From assembly GCA_963720265.1 (NCBI GenBank), contig CAVRET010000002.1, positions 136,704 to 200,703 on the forward strand: a stretch of DNA of 64,000 nucleotides, read 5' to 3'. Shown here in pieces: positions 5,621-57,726 of this stretch (the first letter of the stretch is position 1; the number at the start of each line of letters is the position of its first letter). Under the pieces are notes generated by a model. That model was given only the letters and a program-made list of their open reading frames with translations. It was not told the origin of the DNA and did no database searches. The position numbers were made by a program, and so were the translations under genes. The DNA comes from an uncultured bacterium (GTDB lineage: Bacteria > Patescibacteriota > Saccharimonadia > UBA4664).

Positions 5621-6550
5621 TTATAGCTGAGAACGTGCTAGAAAGCGTTTTGCAAGCTCATACGCCTGCCCGCCGCGTCCTTCCTCTGTATCTGCGTCGA
5701 GCCAAATGATATCAGGATTACGTTTAAACCAAGTTTGCTGACGTTTAACCAATTGCCTGGTGTGTAAGCAGATAAGATTGGCCGCTTCATCCAGACTAGT
5801 CTTACCCTGCAAATAATCTACTATTTCGATATAACCAGGGCTCTTAAGCGGCTCGATCTTGCTTCTATAGTGTTCCAACAGGCCGACGGTTTCGTCCACC
5901 AAGCCTTGTTGAATCATCATCCGCGTGCGCCGTTCAATTCTATTATTCAGCTCGGCCGATGGTACTCGTAATCCAAGCAGCAAGATATTACCCGGTAAGA
6001 CTGTCAGTTGCTGCCGCGGTTGACCCAAGGTTTCCAGCGCCCGGATGACCCTGCGTGGATTTTTCAAATCAATACTGCTAGCTCGCTCCGGATCCTCGCT
6101 CTCAAGCCGCGCTACCAGATTGGCTAACGGCTCGCTCTCCAACCGTACTCGTTCCGCAGTTCGGGGTCCGGCTGGAAAACTATAGTTGTAAATAACACTG
6201 TATAGATACAATCCAGTACCGCCTACCAACATCGGTATCCTTCCACGACTCCAGATCTGCTCGCAAGCCTCCTCAGCCAGAGTTTTAAACAATGCTGCAC
6301 TCATTGCCTCATCAGGATCAAGAATATCGAGCAAGTGATGTGGAATTTTTGATCTTTCAGCAACGGTTGGCTTAGCCGTGCCAATACTCATCTCTCGATA
6401 AACAGTCCGGGAATCGCAACAAACAACTTCACCGTTAAATCGCCGTGCAAGCTCAATGCCAAGCGCCGTCTTGCCTGAAGCTGTCGGTCCAACAAGAGCA
6501 ATAAGTTTTTGGTTAGAGTCGCGCATCGGTGCTAGTGTTGCGGCCACCAC
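5621..6550 (-). CDS. miaA: tRNA dimethylallyltransferase
   Basis: GPTASGKTALGIELARRFNGEVVCCDSRTVYREMSIGTAKPT is the canonical MiaA N-terminus. Confidence 0.85.
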   Translation of the reverse strand: MVAATLAPMRDSNQKLIALVGPTASGKTALGIELARRFNGEVVCCDSRTVYREMSIGTAKPTVAERSKIPHHLLDILDPDEAMSAALFKTLAEEACEQIWSRGRIPMLVGGTGLYLYSVIYNYSFPAGPRTAERVRLESEPLANLVARLESEDPERASSIDLKNPRRVIRALETLGQPRQQLTVLPGNILLLGLRVPSAELNNRIERRTRMMIQQGLVDETVGLLEHYRSKIEPLKSPGYIEIVDYLQGKTSLDEAANLICLHTRQLVKRQQTWFKRNPDIIWLDADTEEGRGGQAYELAKRFLARSQL

Positions 6551-6927
6551 AACAATTTTTGTATATCAACATAGTAATCACTGCTTATTGCAACACCCTC
6601 AAACTCGAGTCGCCGCGCCTGTTCAGCGCGACCTCCATGAAATCCCGAAGCCAAGCCGCCGCTCTTATTAACAACTCGGTGCCAAGGCAAATCCTCCGGC
6701 CCATAATGTGCGATACCACCGACAATTCGAGCGGCTCGTGCATTGCCGCACAACGCCGCAAGCTGGCCATACGTCATCACCCGCCCGGGCGGAATCTCCG
6801 CCACATACCCATATACCATTTCCCGAAACTTCGAATCCGAATCCACGCCTAGACCTCCTGCCTGAGACGCCAGACACCGTCGACCCAACCATTCACCCCC
6901 GGATGAAATAACGTACGCTGATCCCAA
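6532..6927 (-). CDS. Alkyltransferase-like protein (ATL): MGMT/Ogt DNA-binding domain with Trp in place of the active-site Cys
   Basis: 131 aa. PWHRVVN replaces the canonical PCHRV, and the HTH block YGQLAALCGNARAARIVG is present. Confidence 0.6.
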   Translation of the reverse strand: MGSAYVISSGGEWLGRRCLASQAGGLGVDSDSKFREMVYGYVAEIPPGRVMTYGQLAALCGNARAARIVGGIAHYGPEDLPWHRVVNKSGGLASGFHGGRAEQARRLEFEGVAISSDYYVDIQKLLWWPQH

Positions 6928-7619
6928 CTCTGCTCATGCAAATCCCCCTCCCATTGATTTATTTTGATGTCCCTTATGGACACCCCGTCGCCGGTCTCGT
7001 AAGCACTGTCAGCATAAATTATAGAATTTTCAGCGAGCTCAAGCACCAATCCGATGTGATCCGCACCACGCTTGTTCGTCATACCAATCATATCCCCTGG
7101 CTTTATTTGGCTCGCACGCCTTATCTCATCCACTAACCGACGATCGAGCAACCGCCGAACTCCAGTTCGGTAAACCGAATCAGTACCCCAGATCCTTGAG
7201 GCGTCTTGCAACGGCATGAACACCGGCAACGGGTACTTACCCCGGCTTCTGGCCAACTCCGGACGCCGGCGATTGCGCTCCTCAATCTCCGGCCGATCAA
7301 TAACGAGAAATTGGGCCAAACGCAAACCAGATTGCTGGAGCCATTGATCCAGCACATGGTAAACAAAGCCGGAGCAGTCAACGCCTAATCCCTGACTGGT
7401 CATGTAGTTCCTCACTTCAGCAGTACTGTTTGAAGGAACCTGGCCCAACTTCAAGTTGCGATTAACAATGTACTCAAGCTGCCCAGGAGTCGCCTTTCCC
7501 CGATACGGAGCATCAAGCCAAAATGGATCCTCAGCCGAATTAATCCAATATGGCGCCCAGACCTGCAGTTCACCTATTCGTAAGCGATATCGTTCTGCGA
7601 TTGAACGTAGGTTTTTCAT
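6849..7619 (-). CDS. Papain-like / NlpC-P60 superfamily cysteine peptidase-like protein
   Basis: GVDCSGFVYHV (Cys motif) and a later DHIGLVLE (His) are present. The spacing is atypical, so the family assignment is tentative. Confidence 0.4.
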   Translation of the reverse strand: MKNLRSIAERYRLRIGELQVWAPYWINSAEDPFWLDAPYRGKATPGQLEYIVNRNLKLGQVPSNSTAEVRNYMTSQGLGVDCSGFVYHVLDQWLQQSGLRLAQFLVIDRPEIEERNRRRPELARSRGKYPLPVFMPLQDASRIWGTDSVYRTGVRRLLDRRLVDEIRRASQIKPGDMIGMTNKRGADHIGLVLELAENSIIYADSAYETGDGVSIRDIKINQWEGDLHEQSWDQRTLFHPGVNGWVDGVWRLRQEV

Positions 7620-28056: not shown

Positions 28057-28839
28057 ATGACAAATACCCGTACTGCCATTCGCAGCTACTTCACGCGCCT
28101 CGGTCTCACCGCCGAAATCGCTGATCTCTATCTGACACTCCATACGAACGGCCCACAGACCATATCTGAACTGTCTCGCAATGCCGGCGTCGAGCGTACT
28201 CGCATCTATCGCCTGCTTAAACAACTGCGAGCTGTTGGTCTCATCGAAGTCGCATCACAATACAAGCGCAGCATCATTAGCGCTGCACCGGCGTCCAACC
28301 TGCAAATCCTCGTAGGCCAAAAACAAGATTCCGCAAAGCGTCTCGAAACCGAACTGCCCGCCGTCCAGCAATTGTTAACGGCGGGCGCCGCCAGCTCCCC
28401 CACTACCCCCATTCAGTACTATCAAGGCGCACAGGGTTTGCGCCAAATGCTCTGGAACGAGCTCTGCGCCAACACTGAAATCATGGCCTACTCGTACCAA
28501 ATATTTGACGAGGGCATGGGCCGCCCGTTCATGACCAAGTGGGTCGTTGAGTTCGAGCAGCGCAACCTGCATAAGAAAATCCTGTTTAACGACGCCTATG
28601 TTAAAAGCTGGCACGACCGCCCCGGCAATCGAATCAAAGGTATGGAGTACCACTACATCAACCCACACATCCTCACTGTCCAGCACACCTGCAACATCTA
28701 TGACGAGGTCACCTGCTACCTCAGCTGGAGAGACGGCGAAATTTTCGGCGTTGAGATTTACAACCGCGACATCGCAAACGTCCAGCGTCAGTTGCTCAGG
28801 CAAATCTGGCCGCTCTCACAACCGGAAACCAGATTTTAA
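28057..28839 (+). CDS. TrmB-family (sugar-specific) transcriptional regulator
   Basis: Start reassigned to MTNTRTA. The N-terminal wHTH is LTAEIADLYLTLHTNGPQTISELSRNAGVERTRIYRLLKQLRAVGLIEV. Confidence 0.5.
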   Translation: MTNTRTAIRSYFTRLGLTAEIADLYLTLHTNGPQTISELSRNAGVERTRIYRLLKQLRAVGLIEVASQYKRSIISAAPASNLQILVGQKQDSAKRLETELPAVQQLLTAGAASSPTTPIQYYQGAQGLRQMLWNELCANTEIMAYSYQIFDEGMGRPFMTKWVVEFEQRNLHKKILFNDAYVKSWHDRPGNRIKGMEYHYINPHILTVQHTCNIYDEVTCYLSWRDGEIFGVEIYNRDIANVQRQLLRQIWPLSQPETRF

Positions 28840-28848
28840 AATAAGTCC

Positions 28849-28946
28849 TTGGTGCTCCATCGTCAGGGATGTTAGAACCAGAGTCATGGAGCTGGGGCTA
28901 GAGTATCCCCTTCCCAACTATTCCGCACAGAGTCAGATTTAGTTTT
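28849..28946. repeat. Structured intergenic repeat, copy A (about 95 nt)
   Basis: About 85% identical to copy B at 30116-30208. It has a 7 bp stem GCTCCAT/ATGGAGC around a conserved 25 nt loop, then a second GGGG/CCCC hairpin and a conserved tail CCAACTAT..CGCACAGAG. The reverse complement ends in GGAGCACCA, which looks like a tRNA 3' end. Confidence 0.5.
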
Positions 28947-29603
28947 TTATTGATTCTTGAGGAGCTTAATTTGGTAGGCATGGTAAGTAAAACCAGACCG
29001 ACCGCTCTTTGAGCCAACATGTTTCATCTCGTAGTCGTATTGCCTTGCCAGTCCGGGCAGCAGTTCTTGGTTTGCAAAGTCCGACCAGGAGATGTAGGCT
29101 GCGCCACCAGGAACGAGATACTCTCTCAATTCTTTAAAGAACGTCTTTACTACCCGATTACCTTCATCCCAGAAACAAATCGCAGTTTTATCAGGGGCCG
29201 GATGGTCAGTATACGGTGGGTTGATGGTAATGGTATTGAACTTTGAGCCCATCCTTGGAAATAAATCCGTCTCTATGAAGTGAACGTTCGCAACGCCCAA
29301 CTGCTTAGCATTGAGTTGTGCGTTTTTAATCGCAGCCGGGTTTAAATCTGTCCCGATAACGTGACCCGCCCCATGTAACGCCGCGTAAAGCGCAACAATA
29401 CCGTTGCCGGTGCACAAATCCAACACCGAATCCCCTGTTTTAATTTCGATGCTTTCGCAAAGCATCTCGCTATCTGCTCCACCCGGGTAAACATGCGGCA
29501 ATACCGTAAAACGTACACCCGCTAGTTCGTTTTCGAACGAAGCATCAAGCTGCCTGTAATCATCTATTTTCCGGGCTTGAAGCTGAAGCGAGGTTTCACT
29601 CAT
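28947..29603 (-). CDS. Class I SAM-dependent methyltransferase (NPPY motif; HemK/RsmC-like)
   Basis: VLDLCTGNGIVALYAA (SAM motif I) and ITINPPYTDHPAPD (motif IV). Confidence 0.6.
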   Translation of the reverse strand: MSETSLQLQARKIDDYRQLDASFENELAGVRFTVLPHVYPGGADSEMLCESIEIKTGDSVLDLCTGNGIVALYAALHGAGHVIGTDLNPAAIKNAQLNAKQLGVANVHFIETDLFPRMGSKFNTITINPPYTDHPAPDKTAICFWDEGNRVVKTFFKELREYLVPGGAAYISWSDFANQELLPGLARQYDYEMKHVGSKSGRSGFTYHAYQIKLLKNQ

Positions 29604-30060
29604 AACTGCTAAAACGATGAATCAAAAAAATTCTGCCCTGTTTCAAGCGCAACAAGATAATTCTCGACCGGAGGGAAAAGCGGACTAGGCAAATCGTCGA
29701 GAGCAAACCACTGCCAATCCGTTGTCTCTTCGGGCGCGTTATTTTAGTGGGTTCACCCGAAACCCAGTCAGCCACAAAGCTAATATCGACATAGTGTTTC
29801 GGCTTCAATTGGGTAAAATTCATAACACCCAAAAATCTCACATTGCCCACAACAAGCGCATCTCCAGCTTCTTCTGTCAGCTCCCTCAGAGCGCCAGCTT
29901 CAAATGATTCTCCGAGCTCAAGATGACCACCACCGCTGCCCCAATAGTCTTTTCCAAGACCATGCATGCCCTTGCGCTTATGGAGCATTACATATGATTT
30001 GCCATTCTCTTTTTTAAAAACGATAATGCCGACGCCGGCCTTTGGGTACGTTTTATCCAT
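29596..30060 (-). CDS. NUDIX hydrolase
   Basis: Nudix box GGGHLELGESFEAGALRELTEEAG. Confidence 0.75.
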   Translation of the reverse strand: MDKTYPKAGVGIIVFKKENGKSYVMLHKRKGMHGLGKDYWGSGGGHLELGESFEAGALRELTEEAGDALVVGNVRFLGVMNFTQLKPKHYVDISFVADWVSGEPTKITRPKRQRIGSGLLSTICLVRFSLRSRIILLRLKQGRIFLIHRFSSYE

Positions 30061-30075
30061 TGCGTTAATATAACA

Positions 30076-30100
30076 GAAAAGAGCCCCATCGGCTCTTTTG
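30076..30100. terminator. Bidirectional terminator-like perfect 9 bp palindrome
   Basis: AAAAGAGCC-CCAT-GGCTCTTTT, flanked by T-runs on both strands. It lies between repeat copy B and the NUDIX gene. Confidence 0.4.
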
Positions 30101-30115
30101 TAATACTTATGCTTA

Positions 30116-30208
30116 TTGGTGCTCCATCGTCAGAGATGTTAGAACCAGAATTGTGGAGCTGGGACTGGAGTACTCGTTGCCCAACTATACTACCGCACAG
30201 AGACAAAT
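30116..30208. repeat. Structured intergenic repeat, copy B
   Basis: See copy A. The 5' flank of copy B (CTCTTTTGTAATACTTATGCTTATTGGTGC) is about 85% identical to the 3' flank of tRNA-Gly at 30746-30775. Confidence 0.5.
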
Positions 30209-30254
30209 TTAGTTTATTGTTTGGTCACTGTTTAGCCTATAACCCAAAAAAAAA

Positions 30255-30710
30255 TTACTTAATGTGCTTCATTATTTCTTGCGCCAAAGCTCGCATTACA
30301 TCATCAGATAATACTACTGAGTGATGCGTGTCATAATGATGTCCAAATTCGGGGTCAGTGAACTCATCCCCCATAAAGTTAACCGGTCTGCTATAGCGTG
30401 GAGCCACACTCCAATGGACATGAGGTATGGCAGGACTAGACTGAAAGGCGTTGTTCATTAAGCATGTCCAGTTAAATAACTCGGGCTGGAACGCTTCTAT
30501 AATTGCCGACTCAAGCTTCTTCACAACACTTGAAAAGTCTAGCCATTCAGTATTCGAAAGCTCACTTAAGTTGCTCTTATGCTGTTTGAGATTTATGAAG
30601 CACTGACCTAGGTAGCCTTGGCTCGGTTCTAAGACCACATCCCATTGCTGCGTTTCCAGAATACTTCGATGACTTCCAAAGAGGAATTTGCAGGTCTTGC
30701 ATCCGTCCAT
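30255..30710 (-). CDS. HIT-like (histidine triad superfamily) protein
   Basis: A degenerate histidine-triad-like HVHWSV is embedded in a 151 aa alpha/beta protein. The third His is replaced by Ser, so the assignment is tentative. Confidence 0.4.
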   Translation of the reverse strand: MDGCKTCKFLFGSHRSILETQQWDVVLEPSQGYLGQCFINLKQHKSNLSELSNTEWLDFSSVVKKLESAIIEAFQPELFNWTCLMNNAFQSSPAIPHVHWSVAPRYSRPVNFMGDEFTDPEFGHHYDTHHSVVLSDDVMRALAQEIMKHIK

Positions 30711-30768
30711 AATACTGCAATTTTACCAAAAAAGACCCGAGATAGCTCTTTCATAATACTTATGCTTA

Positions 30769-30842
30769 CTGGTGCGGGTAGCGGGAATCGAACCCACCAC
30801 TCAACCTTGGGAAGGTCGCATATTACCGATGTACTATACCCG
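30769..30842 (-). tRNA. tRNA-Gly (anticodon CCC)
   Basis: Reverse complement GCGGGTA...CGACC-TTCCCAA-GGTTG...GTGGG-TTCGATT-CCCGC-TACCCGC-A-CCA. Confidence 0.8.
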
Positions 30843-30858
30843 CACGTTTAAATAAATC

Positions 30859-30934
30859 CTGGAGCCGATGAGCGGGCTCGAACCGCTGACCTTTGCTTTA
30901 CGAAAGCACTGCTCTACCAACTGAGCTACATCGG
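30859..30934 (-). tRNA. tRNA-Thr (anticodon CGT)
   Basis: Reverse complement GCCGATG-TA-GCTC-AGTTGGTA-GAGC-A-GTGCT-TTCGTAA-AGCAA-AGGTC-AGCGG-TTCGAGC-CCGCT-CATCGGC-T-CCA. Confidence 0.85.
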
Positions 30935-31053
30935 CGCGACGGACCGGCCTGGAGCCAGATTAGCAAAAATACAAAAAAACACCAATAGCCAGCCCGCAAG
31001 CGGCTATCAGTGCCCTTAGAACAAAACCGCGAGGTCCTACCTCGCGCTAGCTC

Positions 31054-35752: not shown

Positions 35753-36671
35753 GTACCCCCTGAATCTAAAAACCTAGCCAACTAGAAAACGAGCGGGCGC
35801 ATACTGTTTCTTGTAAGAGAAAACAAACATGCAACCACTCGCTCTCGAATCACATCATATCGTGGATTTATTTGTCGTCATAGACGACGCCGTAGCAGAA
35901 CCGACCCGGCCGCAGGGTGGCCGGCCAAAACTTGTTCGTGATTCAGAAATCATTACCCTTTTAATCTGGAATTGTATATCGGATACGCGTCAGCGTACCC
36001 TTAAATCCATCTTTCATTGGGCCTTGTTGTACCACCGTCGTGACGTGCCCAGGCTCGGTACATATGGGGCTTTTGTGGCCCATTGCCACCGTCTTTTGCC
36101 TCAACTTCTCGAGCTTTTGGGGCAGATGCTGGTTCCAGCCGAGATCCAGCTAGTAGATTCAACCAGGCTGCCGGTGTGCCGTAACCACCGGGCCGACAGT
36201 TACAAAGTGGCAGCCGGTCTGGCGGGCTGGGGTAAAAACTGGCAGGGCTTTTGGTTTGGATTTAAGTTGCACGCGGCGGTGGACGTGGAAGGGTGGCTTT
36301 CGGCCGTGACCTTTACTCCAGCTGACGTCTACGACGGTCATGTGACGCCCGGGCTGGTACGGCCCGAAACTAAAATTGTAGTGGGCGACAGCCATTACGG
36401 CGACAAAATCGCCCGGGAAAAGCTTTGGCGCGAGCATGGTGTAGTGGTTGTAGCACCGGTTCATTACCGGCAAGTTTCTCGAATTATGGCTTCGTGGCAA
36501 CAAAAACTTCTTGCTGCACGAGTCAAAGTCGAATGCACATTTGACTACTTAAAAGAACATCTGAACTTAGTTAGTTCATTCCCGCGGAGCAAAAACGGCT
36601 ATCTGCTCCATTACGTCAGGATTTTGCTGGGCTACCAGATGGGACGGGGTTTTTAGATTCAGGGGTACCAA
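35753..36671 (+). mobile_element. IS982-family (IS4/IS5 superfamily) insertion sequence, apparently intact
   Basis: 21-22 bp terminal inverted repeats GTACCCCCTGAATCTAAAAACC (35753-35775) and GGTTTTTAGATTCAGGGGTACC (36650-36671) flank one DDE transposase ORF. Confidence 0.65.
35829..36656 (+). CDS. IS982-family DDE transposase
   Basis: 275 aa with a candidate DDE triad (DSTRLPVC ... VGDSHY ... ECTFDYLKEH) and an N-terminal FVVIDDAV. Confidence 0.7.
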   Translation: MQPLALESHHIVDLFVVIDDAVAEPTRPQGGRPKLVRDSEIITLLIWNCISDTRQRTLKSIFHWALLYHRRDVPRLGTYGAFVAHCHRLLPQLLELLGQMLVPAEIQLVDSTRLPVCRNHRADSYKVAAGLAGWGKNWQGFWFGFKLHAAVDVEGWLSAVTFTPADVYDGHVTPGLVRPETKIVVGDSHYGDKIAREKLWREHGVVVVAPVHYRQVSRIMASWQQKLLAARVKVECTFDYLKEHLNLVSSFPRSKNGYLLHYVRILLGYQMGRGF

Positions 36672-42072: not shown

Positions 42073-42148
42073 GCCCCGGTAGCTCAGCGGATAGAGCGTC
42101 TCCGTCCTAAGGAGAGCGTCGGGGGTTCGATTCCCTCCCGGGGCACCA
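42073..42148 (+). tRNA. tRNA-Arg (anticodon CCT)
   Basis: GCCCCGG-TA-GCTC-AGCGGATA-GAGC-G-TCTCC-GTCCTAA-GGAGA-GCGTC-GGGGG-TTCGATT-CCCTC-CCGGGGC-A-CCA. Confidence 0.85.
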
Positions 42149-43826: not shown

Positions 43827-44078
43827 ATGAATTCTATCGATATTAGAATCTGGCCATCAGTGAGCCGTTACCCCAAGGGAGGTTGGGAACACGCCTATAC
43901 ACTGCCAGATGGCGGCAAAGGAGGTGGCGGTCATAGGAACGTAACTTTAGATCAGGCCAAATCACTTATCTCGACTACGCTCGCAGAAATGGGCTACGCG
44001 GACTATCAGCTCAACTTTATCGTTGGCGACATGGTATTTACGCCTCTAGGCGAGCACGATGATTCAGACTCTGCTTAA
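43827..44078 (+). CDS. Hypothetical protein (83 aa)
   Basis: TATAAT-like -10 at 43819-43824 and an ATG at 43827. No motif recognised. Confidence 0.3.
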   Translation: MNSIDIRIWPSVSRYPKGGWEHAYTLPDGGKGGGGHRNVTLDQAKSLISTTLAEMGYADYQLNFIVGDMVFTPLGEHDDSDSA

Positions 44079-44849
44079 CACCTCCATTACATGCTCAATC
44101 AGCTCAACCTGGAAGATACGCCGATGGTGAATTGGCAGGCGCTGGACGAGCTGGTCGATTACTGCCTTGCGGCTGTCATCTGGAACAAGAAATAGTACCT
44201 TCGGAAATACCCCGGTCTGATGCTGTTCGCGGCCTCTAGCCCAATACTTTGTGTAAGCATCAAGCTTTTGCCTCAGTTGTGGCCTGCGCTCGGTGCCCAA
44301 GTCCATCTCGATAAACCAGTAATAGGCATATTGACCAATATGCGTCTTCACATTAGCGTCCGGCCGCAGGAGCTGGCGCCCATAGACACCAACGTCCCGC
44401 CGAGGCTCAACTTGAAACGATTTAACGGTTAGCTTGTCTTCGCGCTCCAGCTCCTTTAGCCCCACGTATAACTCGGTAACGGCCAAAGCGTGACCGATAT
44501 ACTGCTCACCTGGGAGTTTCGGCGTCCTCACGGGTGATGTCCCACGACTCAGCAAGGCAATTGCCGGACGTGCCAGGGTAAGCACCATGCTAGCTGACCC
44601 GGCTCGTACACCCCCAACTTGTCGTGGTAAGCGAGTGATTATCCGTTGATCTGCCAATCGTTTAAGGATTCGAGCTGCCACACGTGTGTTACCAAGAGGG
44701 GTACCATCATATACATGAACTCGTTGTATCTGTCGGCTTGTAGCAAATCGTACTCGTAGTAGCGTCTTCAAAACTGCCAAATCACGTTCACTGAGCTCAT
44801 ATGCGTGCCTGTCTACGTAGGCGGTTATAGTACAGGATGTCATATACAT
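44064..44849 (-). CDS. Replication-relaxation family protein (plasmid/ICE-type)
   Basis: 261 aa. The N-terminal winged-helix LSERDLAVLKTLLRVRFATSRQIQRV and overall pattern resemble the Replic_Relax family of actinomycete integrative elements. The assignment is from pattern memory and is tentative. Confidence 0.45.
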   Translation of the reverse strand: MYMTSCTITAYVDRHAYELSERDLAVLKTLLRVRFATSRQIQRVHVYDGTPLGNTRVAARILKRLADQRIITRLPRQVGGVRAGSASMVLTLARPAIALLSRGTSPVRTPKLPGEQYIGHALAVTELYVGLKELEREDKLTVKSFQVEPRRDVGVYGRQLLRPDANVKTHIGQYAYYWFIEMDLGTERRPQLRQKLDAYTKYWARGREQHQTGVFPKVLFLVPDDSRKAVIDQLVQRLPIHHRRIFQVELIEHVMEVLSRV

Positions 44850-56235: not shown

Positions 56236-57726
56236 CTAGCCAGTCCAGTGAGACAACAGGATAGACAGGTCGATAATATTGACCACTCCGTCGGCATTCA
56301 GATCACTTGAGTTGGCGCCAGTCTTCCCCCAGTTGCTCAGCAGTTGCGACAAGTCGTAGATGTTAACCTTGCCGTCGCCGTTTAAGTCCCCGGCCGTGCT
56401 CACCGTCACGTTCGTGGCCGTCGATTGCGATGAAACATTACCGGCCGCGTCCTCGGCCGCCACCATGTAAGCGTACGACCCTACAGTCACATTTGCATCA
56501 GTGAAGGCTGTGGTTGCAACAGTCGCGACCTGCGTACCACCGCGATACACCACATATCCAGTCACACCTACGTTATCAGTTGAGGCCGTCCACGAAAGTT
56601 GCACATTCTGGCCGCTCACCGTCGCGGTTACACCACTCGGCGTGCTCGGCGGCTGGGTGTCCGGCAACGTGCTAAGGCTTGCGGCACTCGATTGTGCCGA
56701 CACGTTGCCTGCCGCATCGTCCGCCGCCACCGTAAAGCTATAGTTCGTCCCCGGCACCAGCCCCGAACTGCTAAATGATGTGCTGGTGCTCGTACCCACC
56801 TGCGCGCCGTTGCGGTAAATCTTGTACCCGGCTACGCCTACGTTATCGGTTGAGGCCGTCCACCCAATGGTAATCGACGTCATCGTGCGCGATGTTAGCG
56901 TCGGCACTCCGGGCACGCTCGGCGCCGTTGTATCAGGCAGTGTAGTAAAGTTGGCCGATGTCGATTGCGCCGACACATTACCGGCCGCGTCATCAGCCGC
57001 CACCGCGTAAGTGTACGTCGTGGCGGGATTCAAGCCGGTATCGTGGTATGTCGTGCTGGTGCTCGTACCCACCTGCGCGCCGTTGCGGTAAATCTTGTAC
57101 CCGGCTACGCCTACGTTATCGGTTGAGGCCGTCCAGCTGAGGTCAATCGTGGTCACACTGTTGGTCGACATCGCAAGCCCAGTTGGTACGCTTGGGGGTG
57201 TCTGATCGGCCACAGTGAACGTTCCGGATGTCGTACCCACCAGCACGTTAGCCTGATCCGAAGCCCGCACCAAGGCCGAGCTTGAGGCAAACGCAATTGT
57301 CGCCTGCCCAATAGCAACCGTTTTGAACGTCAACACTGACACCACTTGGTCACCGGTCAGCGCCGTCTGGTTGCCGCGGCTAAGCGTCACCGTGCCGTTC
57401 CCGGCGGTATTAGCCGCCTGCACAGTAAACGGGCTGGTACTCGGATCAGAGCTGACGAACTGCAGCAAGTTGGACGGATACGTTAGATCAGCTTCAACCG
57501 CGTTCACAGCATCGGTACCGCTATTCTCATACACGGTTACCGTGAATGTCGAGCCCAGCGCGGTCGTCGAGCTCGACGGCGTCAAATACAGCGTGCCGCT
57601 GGCGGCAAAGATCCGCGATACCACATACGCGCCCACAGCCACGGTCAGCAATATGAGGGATGCGACCTGGTACGTCTGGATTGATGCTTTACGCTGTAAT
57701 AAGCCCAATCGTCTCTTTTTTGGCAC
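56236..57726 (-). CDS. Cell-surface protein: N-terminal TM/signal anchor, three fibronectin type III modules, C-terminal dockerin-type repeat pair
   Basis: Three about 91 aa repeats (...IDLSWTASTDNVGVAGYKIYRNGAQVGTSTSTTY...TYTYAVAADDAAGNVSAQS). The C-terminus GDLNGDGKVNIYDLSQLLSNW...DLNADGVVNIIDLSILLSHW is a dockerin-I-like pair of Ca-binding loops. Confidence 0.6.
   Translation of the reverse strand: MPKKRRLGLLQRKASIQTYQVASLILLTVAVGAYVVSRIFAASGTLYLTPSSSTTALGSTFTVTVYENSGTDAVNAVEADLTYPSNLLQFVSSDPSTSPFTVQAANTAGNGTVTLSRGNQTALTGDQVVSVLTFKTVAIGQATIAFASSSALVRASDQANVLVGTTSGTFTVADQTPPSVPTGLAMSTNSVTTIDLSWTASTDNVGVAGYKIYRNGAQVGTSTSTTYHDTGLNPATTYTYAVAADDAAGNVSAQSTSANFTTLPDTTAPSVPGVPTLTSRTMTSITIGWTASTDNVGVAGYKIYRNGAQVGTSTSTSFSSSGLVPGTNYSFTVAADDAAGNVSAQSSAASLSTLPDTQPPSTPSGVTATVSGQNVQLSWTASTDNVGVTGYVVYRGGTQVATVATTAFTDANVTVGSYAYMVAAEDAAGNVSSQSTATNVTVSTAGDLNGDGKVNIYDLSQLLSNWGKTGANSSDLNADGVVNIIDLSILLSHWTG
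56508..57143. repeat. Tandem about 273 bp DNA repeats encoding the FN3 modules
   Basis: An about 83 nt block (GTGCTGGTGCTCGTACCCACCTGCGCGCCGTTGCGGTAAATCTTGTACCCGGCTACGCCTACGTTATCGGTTGAGGCCGTCCA) occurs identically at 56781 and 57054. A diverged third copy sits near 56520. Confidence 0.6.

Follow-up and report, generated by a model that had tools for sequence, protein, structure and literature searches.

The 64,000-nt stretch of DNA analysed here (the window; positions 136,704 to 200,703 of contig CAVRET010000002.1, assembly GCA_963720265.1) comes from an uncultured bacterium and carries, next to a tRNA-Gly(CCC) gene, an array of small gene cassettes that are closed by copies of a short repeat. 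With middling confidence, and judging from sequence comparison, we read this repeat as a ~105-bp cassette-end module, in which a junction site is joined to a micro-open reading frame (micro-ORF), in a tRNA-Gly(CCC)-linked hypervariable array of the Saccharimonadales (Patescibacteria, or candidate phyla radiation, CPR). The repeat forms a family of copies that takes the same cassette-end position in two genomes. Sequences flanking tRNA-Gly and the repeat are exchanged at a shared GCACCA, and the copies differ from one another by substitutions of the coding type. We further infer site-specific recombination with the leader of the module as the site, and gating of the micro-ORF start codon by a 7-bp stem.

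The window holds two copies of the module, A and B, at a distance of 1.27 kb. An earlier reading made from the letters alone (the sequence-only reading) had described them as ~85% identical, which was confirmed by core pattern, profile and alignment: a 33-nt core pattern had exactly 2 matches in the 64-kb window versus 0 expected, nhmmer profiles matched copy A at 28846-28949 or 28850-28949 (E ~1e-32 to 5e-32) and copy B at 30113-30219 or 30117-30219 (E ~1e-28 to 5e-28), and alignment of the two over ~95 nt shows 14 substitutions and a single 3-nt indel (~85% identity). Neither the pattern nor the profile scan returned a third copy within the window. Copy A (28850-28953, + strand; nhmmer and alignments) is composed of a 36-nt leader (28850-28885, TGGTGCTCCATCGTCAGGGATGTTAGAACCAGAGTC; alignments), a micro-ORF of 18 codons from ATG to TAG (28886-28942, MELGLEYPLPNYSAQSQI*, with * denoting a stop; frame analysis) and a short conserved tail, TAGTTT(T)ATTGA. 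Copy B (30117-30222, + strand; nhmmer) has its leader at 30117-30152 (alignments) and its micro-ORF, GTG to TAG with 19 codons, (M/V)ELGLEYSLPNYTTAQRQI*, at 30153-30212 (frame analysis); the 3-nt indel equals the one in-frame codon that B has in excess of A. The leader is an imperfect palindrome, CTGGTGCTCCATC-GTCAGG-GATGTTAGAACCAG, whose first 6 nt (TGGTGC...) are the complement of GCACCA, and the minus-strand end ...GATGGAGCACCA pointed out in the sequence-only reading is found in both copies. The 7-bp stem GCTCCAT/ATGGAGC of that reading is present as well, pairing 28854-28860 with 28886-28892 in A and 30121-30127 with 30153-30159 in B, and its 3′ arm consists of the micro-ORF start codon plus GAGC. 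In B this arm is GTGGAGC, and the G-U variant that had been noted holds on the + strand only, the minus strand having a C.A mismatch. The 25-nt loop described as conserved also exists, with 3 positions differing between A and B. A "second G/C hairpin" (GGGG...CCCC) that had been assigned to both copies turned out to occur in A only and is absent or cut to 3 bp in B and the other copies; in the + strand frame its bases correspond to codons for Gly (GGN) and Pro (CCN).

On the minus strand, which encodes the cargo genes, the array runs tRNA-Thr, tRNA-Gly, flank1′, HIT, B, flank1, NUDIX plus methyltransferase (MTase), A, and then AGGACTTATTTT with a palindrome. It is anchored at tRNA-Gly(CCC) (30770-30843, minus strand), which lies 16 nt downstream of tRNA-Thr(CGT) (30860-30935, minus strand; both by ARAGORN and Rfam). 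Directly after the ...GCACCA of tRNA-Gly stands flank1′ (30715-30769, minus strand), a homologue of flank1 with a degenerate hairpin and TGGTAAAAT before the ATG of the first cargo gene, which encodes a HIT-domain protein of 151 aa (30255-30710, minus strand; Pfam). The ...GCACCA of B is followed by flank1 itself (30061-30116, minus strand), comprising ATAAGCATAAGTATTAC (17 nt), a terminator (30099-30077) and TGTTATATT, an extended -10-like sequence 6 nt before the ATG of the NUDIX gene. The flank of B matches that of tRNA-Gly at ~85%, as the sequence-only reading had it. The second cassette carries genes for a NUDIX hydrolase of 154 aa (29596-30060) and a HemK/MTS-type MTase of 218 aa (28947-29603; both minus strand, Pfam), and the MTase stop is 4 nt from the stop of micro-ORF A, in convergent orientation. 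After the ...GCACCA of A follow minus-strand AGGACTTATTTT, recognised by its trailer motif, and the palindrome AAATCTGG/CCAGATTT (together 28802-28849), which overlap the end of a convergent TrmB-like gene. The palindromes that had been reported beside each copy were both recovered: that near B (30077-30099) has a 9-bp stem and then a T run and scored as an intrinsic terminator of the minus strand, and that near A (28802-28836) has an 8-bp stem with a 19-nt loop within the 3′ end of the TrmB-like gene. The GC content of the array is 44-48%, compared with ~52% around it. Upstream of the HIT, NUDIX and HAD cargo genes (the last in the related genome described below), TGnTAnnnT, an extended -10-like motif, was seen 6-9 nt before the ATG without a Shine-Dalgarno sequence (window 30711-30740 and 30061-30076; L015 7758-7776), suggesting leaderless mRNAs for these three genes.

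A peptide-pattern scan of metagenomes returned a single contig, L014, of 3 kb with three copies of the module (c1-c3), and through its HAD gene we retrieved L015, a 30-kb ENA contig with the syntenic locus. Here the order is tRNA-Gly, flank2, DUF6197, c3, flank1, HAD, c2, flank2′, 150 nt without an ORF, c1 and a membrane-protein gene, with TTGATT-17-TATTAT in flank2 and TTGATT-17-TGnTATAAT in flank2′. The two loci are collinear on the tRNA side (FMN reductase, SH3 protein, a 58/63-aa protein, tRNA-Thr, tRNA-Gly) and again beyond the array (a 411/424-aa protein, a 565/567-aa protein, glycosyltransferase 4), whereas the cargo between these housekeeping genes is wholly different; the units hold HIT, NUDIX plus MTase, DUF6197 or HAD genes only. 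DNA identity between the window and L015 is 71-79% for protein genes, 96-99% for the tRNAs and 80-87% for the module copies. Downstream of tRNA-Gly, every cargo cassette of either genome ends with a module. The ORF-less unit between c2 and c1 (L015 8501-8650) combines a strong promoter-like site with a downstream stretch of 150 nt that contains several hairpins but has no Rfam match, and could, from its sequence, encode a small RNA.

The flanks change partners at one point. Flank1 follows tRNA-Gly and B in the window and c3 in L015, and flank2 follows tRNA-Gly and c2 in L015; the likeness begins at the first base after GCACCA, and leftward of it tRNA-Gly and the modules have only GCACCA in common. 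A further motif, CCA-(A)GGAnTTATTT, follows tRNA-Ala, Val, Asp and Thr as well as copy A (AGGACTTATTTT). In the window, (A)GGAnTTATTT stands directly after the encoded CCA in five of the eight tRNA genes (10299, 10588, 10956, 30860, 39615), and tRNA-Gly is without it. Had two units been inserted between tRNA-Gly and its native trailer, the trailer motif would be expected behind copy A, and the sequence found there is probably the displaced native trailer of tRNA-Gly.

For the analysis of coding potential we compared five copies (A, B and c1-c3 of L014/L015), four of which (A, B, c2 and c3) are intact and open, the first 15 nt of their leaders being invariant. The + strand frame 1 translations read WCSIVRDVRTRVMELGLEYPLPNY-SAQSQI* (A), ...TRIVELGLEYSLPNYTTAQRQI* (B), ...TRIMELGLDYPLPNFTSKRQI* (c3), ...KTRVVELGLEYPLPNYAANIESKSVTADTL* (c2) and *CSIPGRARTSVMKLELEYPPPNYTPRCQI* (c1). 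This is the single frame that is open in every copy, apart from a TGA at codon 1 of c1, and the other frames of both strands carry stops. A common TAG terminates the frame in A, B, c3 and c1, and in c2 it is 8 codons longer and stops at a TGA. All five copies have ATG (A, c1, c3) or GTG (B, c2) at codon 13. Among the four intact copies the ratio of nonsynonymous to synonymous differences (pN/pS) is 0.09-0.22, and in this frame only, amino-acid differences fall below those obtained by random placement of an equal number of changes (P<=0.001 in 5 of 6 pairs). Variable columns at the first, second and third codon positions number 4/1/10 in codons 13-24 and 2/1/3 in codons 1-12, with 10 of 12 third positions variable in the former versus 3 of 12 in the latter. 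The coding signal is concentrated from codon 13 onward, and we therefore read the module as a near-invariant 36-nt leader plus a micro-ORF, the leader being, on the pattern of substitutions, under nucleotide-level constraint. The micro-ORF comprises 18-26 codons with the consensus M/V-ELGLEYPLPNY and a variable tail, and its product in A, MELGLEYPLPNYSAQSQI, is polar and Pro-rich. The substitutions suggest selection on a short + strand peptide rather than on an RNA fold, and the micro-ORF is probably translated. Copy c1, which ends the ORF-less unit, has, besides the TGA at codon 1, a pN/pS of 0.8-1 relative to A and c3 and a broken stem, and looks like a decaying copy.

An upstream extension of the ORF was rejected: the flanks preceding codon 1 are unrelated between copies, and in B, c2 and c3 that region is interrupted by in-frame stops and lacks a start codon. 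Flank1 is not coding, because a 1-nt indel across its hairpin separates B from c3, and entry by a +1 frameshift from a 7-8-codon upstream frame (GTG...TAG) was discarded for want of slippery re-pairing.

Taken in the direction of the cargo, on the minus strand, a unit consists of a trailer-like flank that carries a terminator, a promoter or both, then one or two cargo genes, and finally a module ending in ...GATGGAGCACCA. New units would join exactly after the GCACCA of tRNA-Gly or of a resident module, such that the newest unit lies next to tRNA-Gly and the native trailer has been pushed behind the outermost module, A. On the opposite strand the leader would start at the junction (TGGTGC...) and lead into the micro-ORF, which appears to be under purifying selection.

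Exact-core DNA scans for the module in the GTDB species genomes and JGI metagenomes gave 0 matches. For the peptide, a word-indexed search of 5.8e9 clusters yielded no candidate, HMMER over 1.84e9 representatives gave two chance matches to repeat proteins only, and nothing was found in Pfam or in viral contigs; PHROGs yielded one weak match (E 0.008), between c2 and a family without an assigned function. No longer gene that spans the junction and has this C-terminus was present among 15 billion predicted proteins, and the absence of a full-length relative is more in keeping with a micro-ORF that has escaped annotation than with the remains of a known gene. Homologues of the cassette MTase and of the TrmB-like gene came from Patescibacteria and Saccharimonadales, and among the loci reached by synteny no module was present at those of the MTase (L002-L009) or of the TrmB-like gene (L010-L013), nor at HAD homologue loci of ~50% identity (L018-L020).

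Several observations weigh against the reading of a junction site joined to a translated micro-ORF. We found no Shine-Dalgarno sequence or evident promoter for the micro-ORF, near which there are only weak -10-like hexamers, such as TAAAAT at 28837-28842, ending 7 nt before copy A; a bidirectional-looking terminator precedes B; and the GTG starts of B and c2 would be poor for a leaderless mRNA. The comparison rests on five copies from two genomes, which are not independent. No recombinase lies within or adjoining the array, the nearest, a large serine recombinase, being encoded at tRNA-Arg, 11 kb from the array, and neither a circle nor an empty-site form was seen. Pfam scans, which covered ORFs of >=140 aa at 18-46 kb around the array and, over the left two-thirds of the window, most of the larger ORFs, detected no tyrosine recombinase in the scanned ORFs, with 18 of the 38 remaining larger ORFs, mostly beyond 48.7 kb, lying outside the scan. 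The locus is also remodelled by other processes: in L015 a 251-aa family-2 glycosyltransferase (GT2) gene (6121-6935) sits between tRNA-Thr and tRNA-Gly without a module, and a population-level variant distinguishes L014 (2930-3022) and L017 (1-121) from L015 (6900-7021), contigs that are 99.97% identical elsewhere. In this variant, carried by the contigs from other samples (L014 and L017), tRNA-Gly plus 13 nt is replaced by another gene end (...QAQLELE*) and a strong terminator; its breakpoint is 13 nt after CCA, not at CCA, and both L014 and L017 stop <=125 nt from it.

The amino-acid pattern of the leader also speaks for a different origin, namely that a longer + strand gene, of which each copy retains the final ~30 codons, once extended across a mobile element's attachment site or served as its target, as with an integrase gene split on integration (SSV type) or the duplication of a target gene's 3′ end in the manner of the staphylococcal cassette chromosome (SCC). 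The copies would have diverged under selection in intact donors and would now be dead remnants at element borders. Codons 1-12 look conserved at the amino-acid level, beginning right at the junction (WCSIVRDVRTR...) with Arg encoded by AGG, AGA and CGC and with no start codon in or upstream of them, which fits such a relic and counts against our preferred interpretation; c1 is visibly decaying; and elsewhere in the window the gene of a large serine recombinase crosses the tRNA-Arg junction and ends inside the tRNA, so genes spanning tRNA junctions do occur in this genome. We nevertheless regard this origin as unlikely, and weigh it lower because no such gene was found among the 15 billion predicted proteins (nor the C-terminus in any of the 1.84e9 representatives or 5.8e9 clusters) and because the variable triplet is central in the leader palindrome, where a spacer could vary freely. 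Moreover, upstream of the junction stand terminators, promoters and opposite-strand genes but never a + strand ORF, the drop in variable third positions in codons 1-12 fits a non-coding site followed by an ORF, the ATG/GTG at codon 13 is kept in every copy, and four copies with pN/pS of 0.1-0.2 show little decay. Of comparable standing, and likewise doubtful, is the more far-reaching proposal that the array represents a previously undescribed integron-like cassette system of the Saccharimonadales, in which a ~36-bp site serves to capture small promoter-bearing cassettes, one after another, at the CCA end of tRNA-Gly. With this site fused to the micro-ORF on the opposite strand, each cassette would bring its own copy of the micro-protein. 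The latter could assist recombination as a cofactor, act as an addiction peptide or a regulatory one, or regulate the cargo in antisense, and the recombinase would act in trans, the large serine recombinase 11 kb away being an example. Less probable still is that the repeat is purely a DNA site, an integron-like attC or another site recombined as a folded single strand, with the ORF being incidental. The cassettes do share one orientation and are each ended by a ~100-bp repeat, including the ORF-less one from c2 to c1, insertion occurs beside a fixed anchor and the leader is partly palindromic; but the ends have no RYYYAAC/GTTRRRY cores and form no end-to-end hairpin, the fold energy is non-significant with RNA parameters, no IntI-type integrase was found nearby in the scanned ORFs, and the synonymous pattern in codons 13-24 would be unexpected for a pure DNA site.

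The sequence-only reading had favoured RNA or transposon explanations, and of its interpretation the repeated, conserved intergenic unit and the connection to the 3′ end of tRNA-Gly have stood; the latter is real because the CCA-like end is the exact point of flank exchange with tRNA-Gly. The minihelix or pseudo-tRNA, the structured small RNA and the miniature inverted-repeat transposable element (MITE) have not. We consider it very improbable that the minus strand gives rise to a structured small RNA or a 3′-untranslated region (UTR) element with a tRNA-like CCA end, perhaps subject to tRNA-like processing, although at the end of that strand a 7-bp stem is followed by ACCA, each copy precedes a trailer of the tRNA type and/or a terminator, and the location corresponds to the 3′ UTR of the cargo genes. 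ARAGORN reported no tRNA in the copies, only the eight real tRNAs of the window and, likewise, only genuine tRNAs in L014 and L015, and Rfam (4227 families) had no match over the copies at the gathering scores or at E<=10 in the window or at E<=1 for c1-c3 in L015. Minimum free energies did not differ from those of dinucleotide shuffles on either strand (z -0.84 to +1.30). In local alignments to the eight resident tRNAs, the scores of A, B, c2 and c3 with tRNA-Gly stayed within those of shuffles (p 0.15-0.8), and isolated matches (B with Ala, c1 with Arg) did not recur across copies. The acceptor-like arrangement of stem, discriminator and CCA, GCUCCAU...AUGGAGC-A-CCA on the minus strand, exists in A and c3, has a C.A mismatch in B and c2 and is broken in c1. 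Over the five copies the stem shows 4 invariant pairs, 1 G-U change and 2 pairs broken in c1, but no double and hence no compensatory change; an inner 4-bp helix has 2 double changes, both in c1; 23 of 500 shuffles reached the observed score. The minus-strand consensus from RNAalifold pairs the ACCA end rather than leaving it free. A tRNA or non-coding RNA was rejected on ARAGORN, Rfam, single-sequence folds, RNAalifold of both strands, pair counts and tRNA alignment, all negative or non-significant, and constraint on RNA could not explain the third-codon-position pattern. Least probable of all, and scarcely credible to us, is a MITE, an insertion sequence (IS) terminus or a functionless local segmental duplication. 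It would account for two copies 1.27 kb apart, with an IS5-like transposase gene 5.6 kb off, but no terminal inverted repeats bound the module, there is no target-site duplication, the sequences flanking the copies are either unrelated or the shared flanks, no dispersed copies occur in the window or in 20 related loci, plasmid and phage collections gave no match, and the module is conserved at a syntenic locus where housekeeping genes are only 71-79% identical.

Four further candidates were tried and dropped. The differences between A and B are not adenine-specific, as a template/variable repeat pair of a diversity-generating retroelement would require; the dif/Xer-like CATAA-GTA-TTATG in flank1 has a spacer of 3 nt, not 6 nt; for IS200/IS605-type ends, flank2 is without a hairpin and the hairpins are unlike each other; and a retroviral-type primer-binding site would imply a tRNA 3′ end that is not plausible as tRNA.

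Elsewhere in the window, the large serine recombinase has 551 aa with Resolvase, Recombinase and Zn ribbon domains and is encoded on the minus strand at 43739-42084; its last ~21 codons run antisense through tRNA-Arg(CCT) (42073-42148) with the junction ...TCA|TTGGTGCCCCGGG. It is followed by a Replic_Relax gene at 44064-44849, and from this gene content the segment 42073-44849 looks like a mobilisable element integrated at the CCA end of tRNA-Arg. A second att-like copy of the tRNA-Arg end was not found up to 64 kb, and a look-up of the serine recombinase in other contigs gave no record. The leader of c1 (L014 1201-1230) and the antisense 3′ end of tRNA-Arg(CCT) (window 42124-42148) share 11 nt exactly, CCCCGGGAGGG, plus AACC, which hints at an exchange between the module and a tRNA-Arg-type site. 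The IS5-like DDE transposase gene (DDE_Tnp_1_3) is located at 35829-36656, 5 kb from the array, and the GC content at 36-38 kb is low (44-50%).

Immediately downstream of tRNA-Pro, a 6S RNA was detected on the minus strand at 993-1152 (Rfam, 48.7 bits, just over the gathering score). The segment 25763-26638, between a VanY gene and the conserved 411-aa gene, has 65% GC and a 291-aa ORF without a Pfam match but with a long shadow ORF on the opposite strand, and it is absent from the L015 locus. Three tandem ~270-nt repeats that are 63-79% identical (56405-57250) lie inside a large minus-strand ORF (56236-57726) and therefore correspond to repeated domains in the protein. In five of the related loci (L002, L003, L007, L008 and L009) the MTase homologues are situated 0.9-4.4 kb downstream of tRNA-Lys amid variable small genes, with an IS200-type Y1 transposase at L007; regions downstream of tRNAs seem to be general variable spots in the Saccharimonadales.

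Saccharibacteria are ultra-small epibionts with ~1-Mb genomes, and their acquisition and shuffling of accessory genes are poorly understood. A compact cassette array at a tRNA gene, bordered by a conserved junction site joined to a selected, unannotated micro-ORF, would explain gene flux in CPR genomes by a mechanism that is concrete and can be tested, and would add a small protein family that is missed by standard gene callers. A lesson of the analysis is that an apparent tRNA-like structured repeat can be explained by codon-level selection on the other strand.

Among known tRNA-anchored genomic islands that grew by successive integrations, the tycheposons of Prochlorococcus carry tyrosine recombinases and replication genes and are bordered by repeats that are partial tRNA copies, ~40 nt att sites (bioRxiv 10.1101/2020.12.28.424599). 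The array resembles tycheposon arrays in its hypervariable cargo, which immediately follows a tRNA at a site shared between related genomes, in its tandem units with repeats at the borders, in the inferred displacement of older insertions outward by newer ones and in a cargo of small accessory enzymes. It departs from them in that GCACCA is all that the module has in common with the tRNA, the units, of 0.65-1.3 kb, have no integrase and the repeat contains a selected micro-ORF. With integrons, including chromosomal arrays that have near-identical attC sites, it has in common short cassettes of the same orientation, conserved repeat ends of ~100 bp, a fixed insertion point, an ORF-less unit and cassette contents that are wholly different between related genomes; yet neither the attC cores and hairpin nor IntI and attI were found, the anchor is the 3′ end of a tRNA, the cassettes appear to have their own promoters and the other strand of the repeat would encode a conserved peptide. 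The array fails defining features of both systems: the partial-tRNA att and element-borne integrase of tycheposons, and the attC cores/hairpin and, among the ORFs scanned, IntI of integrons.

For the micro-ORF itself, type I toxin-antitoxin systems offer a comparison. Their peptides are small and hydrophobic or membrane-active. Like these and other antisense-overlapped small ORFs, the micro-ORF is very short, multicopy and has its start codon in a stem, and the 3′ UTR of the convergent mRNA would cover its whole length. The peptide is, however, neither hydrophobic nor membrane-like, and we do not claim membership. The composite SCC islands of staphylococci occupy the 3′ end of rlmH (orfX) with tandem elements, some of which are without recombinases, and with direct repeats that contain coding sequence; insertion is mediated by large serine recombinases and uses a very short shared core. 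As in SCC, the border repeats of the array include coding sequence, and a large serine recombinase is encoded in the window, at another tRNA. Unlike SCC, no copy carries an intact target gene, the repeat is ~105 bp versus 15-20 bp and the anchor is a tRNA. Composite SCC islands are the closest precedent for border repeats with coding sequence in them and for serine recombinases that act in trans and use very short cores.

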